Under the pieces are notes generated by a model. It had not been told where the DNA came from. It made no database searches and saw only the letters and a list, made by a program, of their open reading frames with translations. Both the position numbers and the translations under genes were made by a program. Below are positions 51,479 through 55,700 of a stretch of 64,000 nucleotides of DNA, piece by piece; positions within the stretch are counted from its first letter, which is position 1; each line of letters begins with the position of its first letter. This stretch comes from Promethearchaeota archaeon (lineage in GTDB: Archaea > Asgardarchaeota > Lokiarchaeia > Sigyniarchaeales > SOKP01), in assembly GCA_019058445.1 (NCBI GenBank), contig JAHPZA010000003.1, forward strand, positions 607,811 through 671,810. The letters run 5' to 3'.

Positions 51479-54382
51479 TTAATCAGATTTAGGGAGTAAG
51501 ATGACAATATTGTTACCTTTGGTATAATCTCCTTTTACCTTATCTTCAATCCAAATTTGTCCACCATAACTATTTAGAATTCGGTCTGCAAGTATAAAGC
51601 CTAATAAAACACCTTTTGTGTCTCTCTCATTTCTTTCAAAAAAGTTTCCCCTTTTTTCATCTGAATGCCTAATCCCATTATCCATAATTTCGATTTTTAA
51701 ATAGGTTATATCGTCATTATGCTCGTTAGAGATTTTAATCTCAAGTTCTACTACAGAATTCTCATTATATTTCACAGCATTAATCAAAATATTTTCAAAT
51801 AGATCTAGTAAGAGATCATTTGCTTTAATAATGAATTCATTACAGTTAGGGTCAATATTTACTTTAATTTTTTTATGGCTGAAATTATTTTGTATTTGCT
51901 CTATTGCTTTTTGTAAAATACTTAAAACATCTATTCTTTTTATATTAATCTTAGCGTCTTCAATAGCAGATAATTTTTGAACCTTGGAAACTAAATCTAC
52001 TCCCTCTATGCAATGCTCTATGACAGTTTGCAAAACTTTACCCATTTGATCCAACTTTTTGGGATTGTTATGATAATCTGATAAATGATTTAAAGATAAT
52101 TGGATATTTTTAAAAATTTTTGACATATCATTAGCAAAAAGCTCTTTGTAAAAATTTACTCGATCATAAGCATCATGAAATTTTGCCTCACTTAATTGTA
52201 ATGCCTCCATTGTGTGCTTTAATTTCAATTCAGCTTCTTTTCGTTCTGTAATATCGTTAGCAATTATCTGTATGAAAATATCACCGTTAACTTTGACAAG
52301 AGAAGCATATACATTTGTCCAAATGCTTAAGCCGTCTTTTTTTTTCATTTTTATATCAATAAAAGTTAATGTTTCTCCTTTTATTGTATTTTTAAGGGAT
52401 TCTCCTAACAGTAAAATATATTTTGGATGAAAAATGGATAATTTTTGATCAAATAGTCTTTTTTTTATGAGTTCTTCCCTTGTATGACCAAATAATTCTT
52501 CTACTGCAGGATTACAATCAATAATTACTCCATTGAAATCGATTAAAAAAATAGCCAATGGAGAGCTTTGAAAGAGATGCCTATATTTGTTTTCAGAAGA
52601 TATTAACTGTTTTTTTGCTTGAATACGTTCAGTAATATCCCTTAGGATACATTGTATTAAGTTTTGGCGACCAATTTGAATTTCACTGGTATTTACTTCG
52701 ACCGGAATAAAATAATCATGTGGGGTTCTAATCTTCATTTCAATTGGTGGTGAATTTGCCAATTCAATTTGCATTAAAATTTGATCTTTAAAATTTTGAC
52801 TATACTCCTCAATTTCAATTTGGCTTGAGTGAATCCCGATAATATCTTCAAGAGGTTGTTGTAGCAATTTTTCTGCTTGTTCATTAGCATCTACAATAAT
52901 TCCTGACTTTCTATCTATAATAAGAATCGCATCTCTTGCAGCTTTGAACAAAGCTTGATAGCGTAGCTCAGCAATTCGTAGAGCTTGAACTGTAGGTTTA
53001 AAAGTTTTTAGTTTCTCTAAAATAGTTTCATGAATTTCTTCCAATACTTTTAAAACTCGAGAAGTGTTGCTATAAAATTTTTTTATTTGAGTAAATTTCT
53101 CAAATACATAAATATTAAATTGATTGATAATTCCTGTTGGAATATCATCAGTATAAAAGATAACGAGAGATAAAGGAAGTCGCCCTCCTCTAATATTCTG
53201 ATCATACACATAATCAAAATATACAGCTGCTTTCATTTTAAGATGCGAAAGAGGTAATGTTAAAGAAGTTCTTTTGAACTTATCTCCTCCAAATATAAAT
53301 TGAGAGATTGAGAAACAGCGGATCGCAATTAATTCAGGATCATCAAAAAAATCCTGAGGATATAATTTTAAAGTATTAAGACCTAAATTATCATCCCAAA
53401 TTGAGAAGAGAACTCCTAAATTATTTTTTTGAGTTGGATTTATTTTATTTGATATTTTTTGAGAAAGCCAATAGAAAGCTTCTCCTATATTTTTACCTGT
53501 AAGACCACATGTAGGAAAGATTTTAAAAGATCTATCTCCAAGTCCATCTAAATTCATTATTTTGCTTAATGTTTTAATATTAGGTTCTTTTAAATCAGTT
53601 TTATTAAAAAGAATAAGAATAGGAACATTTTTCATTTCTGATTTACTAACAATCTTGTGGAAGATATTTCGAGCGTAATCAAATTTTTCAATATCAGCAA
53701 TATCTAAAACAAAGACAAGCCCATCCTGATTTTTTAAGTAAGGTTCCCATAAACTCCTTAATTTTATTTGTCCAGGCGTATCATATATATAAAGTGATAA
53801 ATTATTGATTAATATTCGTGAAATATCTATATGCCTTGTAGGAAGTGGATTTTTTTTTATAGTTTTTTTAAGACAATTTATAATTGTTGTCTTACCTGCC
53901 TGATAAAGTCCAAATATCAAGATTTTTGCGTCTTTGCGGTCAAGTACAACACTTTCTGTGGGAAATGTCTCGTAAAAAGAATAAAATAATTTCTTAATTT
54001 CTTCTAATTTTTTTTCATCTCCTTGAAAATCCTTATTATCTATATAAAATGCTTTATATGCCTCATTAATTTTCTTAAATTCTTTTTCAAATCCTTCTAA
54101 TAGTTCTTTTGATAAATCAAAATTTATATTAGTACTAATGTCAATAATGAGTGAAATGAGCAATAATTCTCTTTTACCACGTCCATATTCACTTGGAATT
54201 TCAAAAATCAGATTAGCACTCTTAAAACTTCCAAATATATGAATATAAAATCCCTCATCATAGATATCCATTAAAGAAGTAATTTGTTCTAGTTCATTTT
54301 CTATTACTATAGACTTTGGAGTTTTTAATAATATTTTTGGTCCGTAAAAAAGATCAAAATAACTTAAAGCTAGAATTCTCAA
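51479..54382 (-). CDS. Longin/uDENN - Arf-like GTPase - longin/uDENN - PAS - PAS - degenerate histidine kinase fusion
   Basis: FDLFYGPK; GLYQAGKTT, DTPGQ, NKTD; WDDNLG; two PAS domains ending DITER; ANDMSK H-box; ENILINAVKY N-box. Confidence 0.85.
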   Translation of the reverse strand: MRILALSYFDLFYGPKILLKTPKSIVIENELEQITSLMDIYDEGFYIHIFGSFKSANLIFEIPSEYGRGKRELLLISLIIDISTNINFDLSKELLEGFEKEFKKINEAYKAFYIDNKDFQGDEKKLEEIKKLFYSFYETFPTESVVLDRKDAKILIFGLYQAGKTTIINCLKKTIKKNPLPTRHIDISRILINNLSLYIYDTPGQIKLRSLWEPYLKNQDGLVFVLDIADIEKFDYARNIFHKIVSKSEMKNVPILILFNKTDLKEPNIKTLSKIMNLDGLGDRSFKIFPTCGLTGKNIGEAFYWLSQKISNKINPTQKNNLGVLFSIWDDNLGLNTLKLYPQDFFDDPELIAIRCFSISQFIFGGDKFKRTSLTLPLSHLKMKAAVYFDYVYDQNIRGGRLPLSLVIFYTDDIPTGIINQFNIYVFEKFTQIKKFYSNTSRVLKVLEEIHETILEKLKTFKPTVQALRIAELRYQALFKAARDAILIIDRKSGIIVDANEQAEKLLQQPLEDIIGIHSSQIEIEEYSQNFKDQILMQIELANSPPIEMKIRTPHDYFIPVEVNTSEIQIGRQNLIQCILRDITERIQAKKQLISSENKYRHLFQSSPLAIFLIDFNGVIIDCNPAVEELFGHTREELIKKRLFDQKLSIFHPKYILLLGESLKNTIKGETLTFIDIKMKKKDGLSIWTNVYASLVKVNGDIFIQIIANDITERKEAELKLKHTMEALQLSEAKFHDAYDRVNFYKELFANDMSKIFKNIQLSLNHLSDYHNNPKKLDQMGKVLQTVIEHCIEGVDLVSKVQKLSAIEDAKINIKRIDVLSILQKAIEQIQNNFSHKKIKVNIDPNCNEFIIKANDLLLDLFENILINAVKYNENSVVELEIKISNEHNDDITYLKIEIMDNGIRHSDEKRGNFFERNERDTKGVLLGFILADRILNSYGGQIWIEDKVKGDYTKGNNIVILLPKSD

Positions 54383-54728: not shown

Positions 54729-55700
54729 ATGGAAAAATATTCAAGGTTAGAAATTTTGAAAAATAAAGAAAAGGAAAATTCCAATGGGATTAAAATTTTA
54801 TTCACAGGGCTGGATAATGCGGGTAAATCGTCAATAATTCTATCACTATTACGTGAATTCTCAAAAATTGGGATTATTAGACCAACAAAAGGAGCTCAAA
54901 GAAGAGTTTATGAATTCTTAGGAATGAATATAAGCGAATGGGATCTCGGAGGTCAAAAGAAATATCGTGATTCATACTTAAAAGATTATGATTTGTTTTT
55001 TGGTAGAACTGATATAATGATTTATGTGATTGACATTCAAAATCCTGACAGAATTTCAGAATCTTTAACTTATTTAAATGATATAATAGAGAATTTCAAA
55101 AAGCTGAAGATCGAACCTGGAATTTATGTATTTTTTCATAAAATTGACCCAGAGATATATAATAAAGCTCAAAAAGAAATTGAGAGTATTATATCAAAGA
55201 TAAAAAACCAAATGGAAAAAAAAATCAATTATAGAAAAATTAATTTTAATTCAACTTCGATCTTTGATTTATCATCAATTCTTAATGCGATGTCTGAAAT
55301 TCTAATAACTAAATTTCCGAAATCTAGATTAATTAACGATACGATTGATGAATTTACCAGAAAATTTAATGTAGAAGGATTAGAAATTGTAGATGATAAC
55401 TCTTTCATTATTGGATCTTACTATAATGATGATTTTATTAAAAATTTATTAAATTCTACTGTTCCCTACTTCTTAAAATTAAATGATGCCTTTGAAGATG
55501 TGAAATCCGAACAATGTCAACCTGAAGATAAAATGATGATTCATAGATTCGGAAAAGTCTTTTTATTTAAAAAATTCACTTTGCAGAAAGAAGCTCCATT
55601 TTATTACCTGCTAATCTGCAAGGAAGAGGGATCAGAATTGAATGAACAAGATTATAAAGCTCTTATTAATTTATTAAAAAAAATTTTATCTAAAGAATAA
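54729..55700 (+). CDS. Rag/Gtr-like small GTPase with C-terminal roadblock/longin-like domain
   Basis: GLDNAGKSS, PT, WDLGGQ, Rag-type G4 HKID and G5 TSIFD; ~120-aa C-terminal alpha/beta domain. Confidence 0.85.
   Translation: MEKYSRLEILKNKEKENSNGIKILFTGLDNAGKSSIILSLLREFSKIGIIRPTKGAQRRVYEFLGMNISEWDLGGQKKYRDSYLKDYDLFFGRTDIMIYVIDIQNPDRISESLTYLNDIIENFKKLKIEPGIYVFFHKIDPEIYNKAQKEIESIISKIKNQMEKKINYRKINFNSTSIFDLSSILNAMSEILITKFPKSRLINDTIDEFTRKFNVEGLEIVDDNSFIIGSYYNDDFIKNLLNSTVPYFLKLNDAFEDVKSEQCQPEDKMMIHRFGKVFLFKKFTLQKEAPFYYLLICKEEGSELNEQDYKALINLLKKILSKE

Follow-up and report, generated by a model that had tools for sequence, protein, structure and literature searches.

Two longin domains with R-G loops around an Arf-family GTPase in a Lokiarchaeal PAS protein: candidate arginine fingers of a putative single-chain GTPase switch

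A 64,000-nt stretch of DNA (the window, to which all coordinates refer) from a Promethearchaeota archaeon (Lokiarchaeia; Sigyniarchaeales; SOKP01; assembly GCA_019058445.1, contig JAHPZA010000003.1, positions 607,811–671,810) contains a gene (51479..54382, minus strand) for a 967-aa protein in which, according to its open reading frame, Pfam matches and fold models, a longin domain (D1), an Arf-family GTPase domain, a second longin domain (D2), two PAS domains and a histidine kinase-like module follow one another. Each longin carries an R-G motif in the loop between strands β4 and β5, and among proteins sharing the D1-GTPase-D2 module the two arginines, R68 and R398, are evolutionarily tied to the catalytic glutamine of the fused GTPase, Gln205. 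This suggests that the N-terminal 470 residues may be a self-contained GTPase switch, in which a longin platform would act in cis as a GTPase-activating protein (GAP) on the fused Arf-type GTPase and one or both arginines would hydrolyse GTP together with Gln205; the chances for and against this reading are judged to be about even.

Longin GAP complexes (GATOR1, FLCN-FNIP and C9orf72-SMCR8) underlie nutrient and trafficking signalling in eukaryotes. SMCR8 R147 and FLCN R164 are arginine fingers: ARF1 or RagC is held in a bowl made by a pair of longins, one of which inserts its arginine. The GP motif and the arginine finger have been described in Asgard FLCN/SMCR8-type longins, which were put forward as possible GAPs, the choice between ArfR and Rag GTPases as partners being posed as a question (PMC12290439, 2025), and MK-D1 GTPases have been reported that are fused to a longin, to a roadblock domain, or between a longin and a roadblock domain (PMC10933270, 2024). 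The core idea, GP plus arginine in Asgard longins and fusion of longins to GTPases, is therefore already published. The D1-GTPase-D2 architecture is not discussed in the paper on ArfR GTPases, and a literature search found no paper combining Asgard, longin, PAS and histidine kinase, nor one on the Roadblock-Longin or LokiRag structures used below. What appears to be new is the sandwiching of a GTPase between two longins, the joining of that unit to PAS and kinase-like modules, and a covariation pointing to the fused GTPase as client. The family offers an answer to the ArfR-or-Rag question, with a candidate client covalently attached and arginines tied to its catalytic glutamine. A first-pass annotation, made from the sequence alone, had noted the R-G motifs and proposed that the GAP finger may predate eukaryotes; its observation was confirmed, while its interpretation was partly supported and in part anticipated by this literature.

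Longin folds of D1 and D2 and their R-G loops

D1 (residues 1–145; 53948..54382) and D2 (residues 318–470; 52973..53431), on the minus strand like all features of this gene, had nothing relevant in a Pfam or NCBIfam scan. The four sequence strings quoted for them in the first-pass annotation, including VLFSIWDDNLG, are present in the translation. The gene begins with TTG at 54382, a start that is supported because the initial Met of the homologs falls at the same column. Models were obtained with AlphaFold 2 (AF2). In the model of residues 1–470, with secondary structure assigned by DSSP, D1 has the longin element order β-β-α-β-β-β-α-α, without the N-terminal helix of roadblock domains, at a predicted local distance difference test score (pLDDT) of ~85. 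D2, modelled alone (pLDDT 88; predicted template modelling score, pTM, 0.86), begins with two strands and has the same order, so that both domains, previously called longin-like, have the element order of longins. R68 (codon 54179–54181; R68-G69, 54176..54181) lies in the loop between strands 53–63 and 71–81, and R398 (codon 53189–53191; R398-G399-G400, 53183..53191) in the loop between strands 383–393 and 401–411. Both are candidate arginine fingers in a β4-β5 loop.

The D1-GTPase-D2 module has more than 120 homologs at 45–65 % identity, all labelled Asgard archaea (Promethearchaeota/Lokiarchaeia, Hod-, Thor-, Odin-, Heimdall- and Hermodarchaeota). An alignment of 120 homologs bore out conservation of the arginine more fully in D2 than in D1: R398 was present in 118, G399 in 119 and G400 in 114, and conservation of R68 was only moderate (R 78, K 22, N 11), with position 69 being T in 61 and G in 50. 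The GP hairpin that begins NPRL2/FLCN longins was present in D1, where G14-P15 (54338..54343) opens strand β2 (residues 14–21); P15 occurs in 95 of the 95 homologs having that region, and position 14 is G in 41, P in 37 and R in 14. In D2 only its glycine was found: G334 (53381..53383), the counterpart of G14, opens strand β2 and is invariant in the 120 homologs, and is followed by Leu here and by I, V, L, A or P among the homologs (Pro in 9 of 120). Four of the five D2-type paralogs of the genome have Pro after this glycine.

With hhalign, a profile of 54 D1-family sequences aligned to one of 30 D2-family sequences with 80 % probability (E 1.4e-5, 102 columns), pairing G14 with G334, P22 with P342, R68 with R398 and G69 with G399. 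By this profile match, D1 and D2 are homologous and carry the same motif as duplicates. The genome (4.6 Mb, 92.6 % complete) contains eight D1-type and five D2-type domains in various architectures, and Arg occupies the loop column in 13 of 13 and G-P is present in 12 of 13. Retention across homologs, the profile pairing and the 13 of 13 count together indicate that the R-G motif is not due to chance.

The D2 model was aligned with VIA against ~48,000 solved chains, and a second-look alignment gave the same order of matches. The best match, with Z 15.5, was to the longin of 8yqg, a Roadblock-Longin protein from Lokiarchaea, followed by Kluyveromyces lactis Lst4 (Z 12.3–12.9), chains of FLCN-FNIP2 complexes (6nzd and 8dhb, Z 11.0–11.3; 6ulg, 10.6), GATOR1 (Z 9.4–11.6; 8fw5, 11.0), C9orf72-SMCR8 (7o2w_A, Z 10.7–11.0; 7mge_C, 10.2) and the SEA complex (10.2). 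The search output gives entry titles only, and the assignment of chain letters to subunits is presumptive; on that assignment, catalytic and non-catalytic subunits were equally like D2 (Z differences <1). Other longins (VAMP7, Sec22, sedlin and Ykt6) reached Z ≤9.5, and roadblock chains reached Z 7–8.6 over ~99 residues. In the first of the two alignments, the ceiling was Z 9.2 for VAMP7, sedlin and Sec22 and Z 8.3 for roadblocks. Foldseek gave GATOR1 chains as top matches (E 8.5e-5, 18 % identity). In the ESM Atlas, the neighbours of D2, at template modelling (TM) scores of 0.71–0.77, were Asgard clusters with partial Folliculin or NPR2 Pfam labels together with eukaryotic clusters labelled SMCR8, FLCN/SMCR8-type and C9orf72 (TM 0.71–0.75, with SMCR8 and C9orf72 at 0.71); an Atlas search by features for D2 returned no match. 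Judged on its model, D2 is a longin of the GAP-complex kind, by a modest margin of ~1–3 Z units over other longins, and the likeness to FLCN/SMCR8 previously proposed held for this domain, its nearest structures falling in the FLCN/FNIP, NPRL2/3 and SMCR8/C9orf72 group. With two strands at its start and no N-terminal helix, the modelled D2 is not a roadblock/LC7 (MglB-type) domain.

For D1, the nearest named Atlas cluster carried NPR2 on 19 % of its members. Among Pfam families, Folliculin (PF11704) matched the most D1 relatives, with sub-threshold hits in 3 of 54 (best E 0.0027). A search with D1 for stand-alone proteins gave three unnamed matches, and cluster names were restricted to the labels 'Arf family' and 'PAS domain'. 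The surroundings of NPRL2 R78 and FLCN R164 resemble the D1 consensus Y-[SAG]-R-[GT]; this resemblance was given no weight.

The Asgard Roadblock-Longin family provides a further link. Six of its 18 members have precomputed Pfam Folliculin matches, and its GP and A-R-G-G motifs are invariant. The D2 profile aligned to the longin of this family with 76 % probability (E 2.3e-5), pairing R398 with the invariant Arg of A-R-G-G, and the D1 profile aligned likewise, weakly (20 %). The crystallised 8yqg reads K-E-P-E-K where its relatives have K-A-R-G-G; a longin solved without the Arg indicates that the fold does not need it. By fold class, loop position and these chained profile alignments, R68 and R398 would be the equivalents of FLCN R164 and SMCR8 R147. 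The genome itself encodes a homolog of 8yqg (E 1e-16), a 280-aa Roadblock-Longin protein on contig C10 (L001:1498–2340, minus strand), whose longin has GP and A-R-G-G motifs invariant across 17 relatives and is the best, sub-threshold, Pfam Folliculin match of the genome.

The R-G dipeptide is a short motif, and in a loop of an ordinary longin fold it could be a coincidence. No link from D1 or D2 to FLCN, NPRL2 or SMCR8 came from searches by sequence: neither phmmer with D1 and D2 nor the profiles of both families found a longin among solved-structure sequences, and the Roadblock-Longin profile found only 8yqg there, not FLCN. A search of the genome with PF06218 (NPR2) gave no match, and one with PF11704 gave sub-threshold matches to other longin proteins only, at a cut-off that also matches 8 of 14 control genomes. 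Set against this are retention of the motif across 120 homologs and 13 paralogous domains, its alignment to a single column across both domains and the Folliculin-matching Asgard family, and the structural proximity of D2 to GAP-type longins. Coincidence was already disfavoured and is considered highly improbable.

The fused GTPase and covariation with the arginines

The domain between the two longins (residues 146–317; 53432..53947) matched Pfam Arf (1.3e-39, residues 145–311), and the structure search with the 470-residue model gave GTPases as its matches, including Arf6 (Z 24.1), Arf1 (22.7), Sar1 (22.1) and HodArfR1 (21.1). G158, G163, K164, T182, D201, P203, G204, N260 and K261 are invariant in the 120 homologs. 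The fused domain is an Arf-family GTPase with all nucleotide-binding motifs kept, preceded by the 145 residues of D1 and not by the short N-terminal amphipathic helix of Arf. Within the DxxGQ motif of switch II, Q205 (53768..53770) is the catalytic Gln. The homologs divide at this position into 65 with Q, 47 with K and four each with H and Y. Lys at 205 (47 of 120, ~40 %) occurs mostly in a subfamily of ~1120-aa proteins whose nucleotide-binding motifs are intact, and judged by sequence the switch of these proteins may be naturally 'locked' or may rely on a different catalysis.

Both R68 and R398 were present in all 65 Gln205 homologs, and R68 was present in 9 of 47 Lys205 homologs. Changes were counted by parsimony on a maximum-likelihood tree of the 470-residue module with motif columns masked. 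Although Gln205 lineages make up 73 % of the branch length of this tree, non-Gln lineages held 15 of the 16 changes found at position 68 (binomial P=3.3e-8), and the single change under Gln was a regain of Arg together with a K-to-Q change. At 205, H-to-Y coincided with R-to-L at 68; three Q-to-H changes kept the Arg. When the same count was made over all 470 positions, position 68 ranked first (Bonferroni-corrected P~1.6e-5), and the D1 core residues P15, N57, F60 and E72 showed no change on the tree. On a second tree of 109 proteins, with divergent members added, the 65 Gln205 proteins all carry both arginines; each of the five inferred losses of R398 falls in a non-Gln lineage, and three of them share their branch with the loss of Gln (P=0.005). 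The constraint on the two arginines is unequal, R398 being near-invariant and R68 relaxed once Gln205 is lost.

A cis-acting switch and its alternatives

GTPases of the Arf type depend on an Arg that comes in trans. The fused domain belongs to this family, keeps its nucleotide motifs and is joined to the two longins by short linkers, and nearly all changes at position 68 lie in non-Gln lineages while the D1 core stays fixed; these points favour longin GAP action in cis, and a built-in GAP or regulatory platform is the simplest reading. As both arginines are evolutionarily tied to Gln205, the fused GTPase is favoured as the client over a neighbouring one. D1 and D2 would come together, intramolecularly or between the two chains of the dimer that the kinase-like end leads one to expect, as a longin platform cupping the fused GTPase, and would supply one or both arginines to work with Gln205 in GTP hydrolysis, provided that these reach the nucleotide. 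R68 may be tied most specifically to Gln-dependent catalysis, while R398 may be a second contributor or may also serve something else, with the Rag-like protein encoded next to the gene as a possible target. The PAS domains and the kinase-like module could read or set the state of the switch. GAP activity of D1 and D2 on the fused GTPase is a prediction, as is the geometric equivalence of R68 and R398 to R164 and R147.

Several observations weigh against this proposal. D2 is without the Pro of the GP motif (G-L instead), neither D1 nor D2 matched Pfam Folliculin (PF11704) or NPR2 (PF06218) at E values up to 1, and D1 is tied to the structures of GAP-type longins only through its hhalign alignment to D2. 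The placement of R68 and R398 relative to FLCN, SMCR8 and NPRL2 was judged from fold class, loop position and chained profile alignments. The AF2 model of residues 1–470 (mean pLDDT 79, pTM 0.43) gives an unreliable arrangement of domains; a predicted complex of the G domain with both longins and GTP scored 0.01, which speaks neither for nor against the proposal. The Gln-to-Lys change marks essentially one large clade, and a strict independent-pairs sign test of Gln205 against R68 yielded five pairs, of which ~2 were informative, and was not significant. Of 49 two-domain D1-GTPase relatives, 16 combine the Arg with G motifs that are non-Gln or degenerate, and seven have Gln but no Arg. R398 remains in 45 of 47 Lys205 proteins, which indicates that Gln-dependent hydrolysis alone does not explain its constraint. 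The coupling of arginine and Gln205 in the alignments is clear within the three-domain family and is no general rule for D1-type domains.

These last observations also bear on a role of the R-G loops other than catalysis, in which the double longin would be a binding, dimerisation or GEF-like (guanine nucleotide exchange factor-like) platform and the arginines would stabilise the loop or bind phosphate or another ligand. Longin and roadblock platforms mostly serve as GEFs or scaffolds, and such a role would accommodate the Arg kept beside pseudo-GTPases in the two-domain relatives, the persistence of R398 in Lys205 lineages, and a D2 that is as similar to the non-catalytic FNIP2, Lst4, NPRL3 and C9orf72 as to catalytic subunits. 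It fits poorly with the dispensability of the Arg for the fold in 8yqg, with a covariation that singles out position 68 (ranked first among 470) in an otherwise conserved D1, and with a loop that, beside the GP hairpin, is the finger-bearing loop of the eukaryotic family. A non-catalytic role is regarded as unlikely, with a real share of the probability.

A second alternative concerns the gene next to the double-longin gene, a divergently oriented gene (54729..55700, plus strand) that encodes a 323-aa Rag/Gtr1-like GTPase with a C-terminal extension (Pfam Gtr1_RagA, 3.2e-29). The longin arginines, R398 especially, could act in trans on a separate GTPase, most obviously this one, as FLCN and GATOR1 act on Rags, with the fused Arf-like domain serving as a regulatory or scaffolding switch. 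The neighbour is closely homologous to LokiRagO, a homotetrameric Lokiarchaeal protein of solved structure (PDB 8yl2, E 4e-72), and a 314-aa Gtr1_RagA gene, 50 % identical to it in the one case compared, lies directly upstream in three of seven homologous loci. Action in trans would also suit R398 being retained in Lys205 lineages and D1-type domains keeping their Arg beside degenerate GTPases, and the eukaryotic FLCN and NPRL2 are Rag GAPs. The Rag-like linkage is absent in the other four of the seven loci, however, and both arginines were lost only where the fused GTPase had lost Gln205, which points to the domain in cis. The Rag-like neighbour is a possible partner or alternative client, and action of the arginines chiefly in trans is thought rather unlikely. 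The neighbour reads H-K-x-D in place of N-K-x-D.

The proposal of GAP action in cis can be extended to a specific form, in which this family would be a single-chain version of the eukaryotic longin GAP complexes: an FLCN-type longin pseudo-heterodimer fused to its Arf-family client, with both arginines functional and the module gated by PAS sensors. This form is put forward tentatively and seems doubtful. If it is correct, longins acting as GAPs on an Arf-type client by means of an arginine finger would have existed in Asgard archaea before the C9orf72-SMCR8-WDR41 (CSW), FLCN and GATOR1 complexes diverged. The family is a good test case for longin GAP machinery predating eukaryotes, and the Gln205-to-Lys clade with its relaxed R68 provides a natural comparison.

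The ARF GAP C9orf72-SMCR8 (CSW) resembles this protein in having two longins, an Arf-family client (proposed here) and an Arg loop beside a G(P) hairpin. It differs in that here longins and GTPase share one polypeptide, both longins carry the Arg, and PAS and kinase-like domains are fused; DENN, WDR41 and any sequence-level match are missing here, and the GAP role is predicted. The Pfam scan found Arf, PAS and HATPase_c, and no DENN, after D1 or D2. The Rag GAPs FLCN-FNIP2 (Lst7-Lst4) and GATOR1 NPRL2-NPRL3 supply the best eukaryotic structural matches of D2, and a Rag-like gene adjoins here, whereas the fused GTPase is Arf-like and not Rag-like, and DENN, DEPDC5, other partner subunits and a Pfam Folliculin or NPR2 match are lacking. 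Asgard FLCN/SMCR8-type longins (PMC12290439) and the Roadblock-Longin protein 8yqg come from the same phylum and share the GP and Arg signature; they are stand-alone or roadblock-fused without an assigned client, and the crystallised 8yqg is without the Arg, whereas here two copies flank a GTPase. The MK-D1 longin-GTPase(-roadblock) fusions (PMC10933270) likewise place a GTPase behind an N-terminal longin-type platform in Lokiarchaeia, but the C-terminal flank is here a second longin, not a roadblock domain, and the chain continues into PAS and kinase-like domains. A protein of the MK-D1 kind is encoded in the same genome outside the window (L002:1276–2679, plus strand, contig C3; 467 aa), with a longin (GP, A-R-G-N), a Rag-like GTPase and a C-terminal roadblock-like region, and is a second way in which this genome fuses a GAP-type longin to a GTPase.

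The output end and family members

The region following D2 comprises two PAS domains (residues 474–716; 52235..52963; Pfam PAS, PAS_9 and PAS_4; TIGR00229, 1.5e-39) and a kinase-like module that ends in HATPase_c (residues 856–965; 51488..51817; Pfam PF02518, 2.4e-11). PAS and kinase-like regions follow the D1-GTPase-D2 module in most homologs. The Pfam scan of the 967-aa protein gave no HisKA match, and the H-box column, which is N in 63, H in 25 and Q in 12 of the 120 homologs, here reads A-N-D, with Asn751 (52130..52132) in the place of the His. Asn751 makes a canonical kinase improbable here, and by its sequence the output end of this protein is probably not one. His at the H-box never co-occurs with Lys205 among the homologs, and the syntenic orthologs that have a Rag-like neighbour (P0011, P0016 and P0021) keep the H-box His.

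An exhaustive search showed that ~315-aa D1-GTPase proteins and D1 fused to other partners also exist. Within the genome, one paralog has the same D1-GTPase-D2-PAS layout (P0117, contig C3:109189–111744, plus strand; 844 aa). It is 47 % identical over the module and has A-R-G, Gln205, G-P in D2 and V-R-G-G. On another Lokiarchaeal contig, two double-longin family genes encoding proteins of 957 and 971 aa stand as a tandem pair (L008:361–3234, plus strand).

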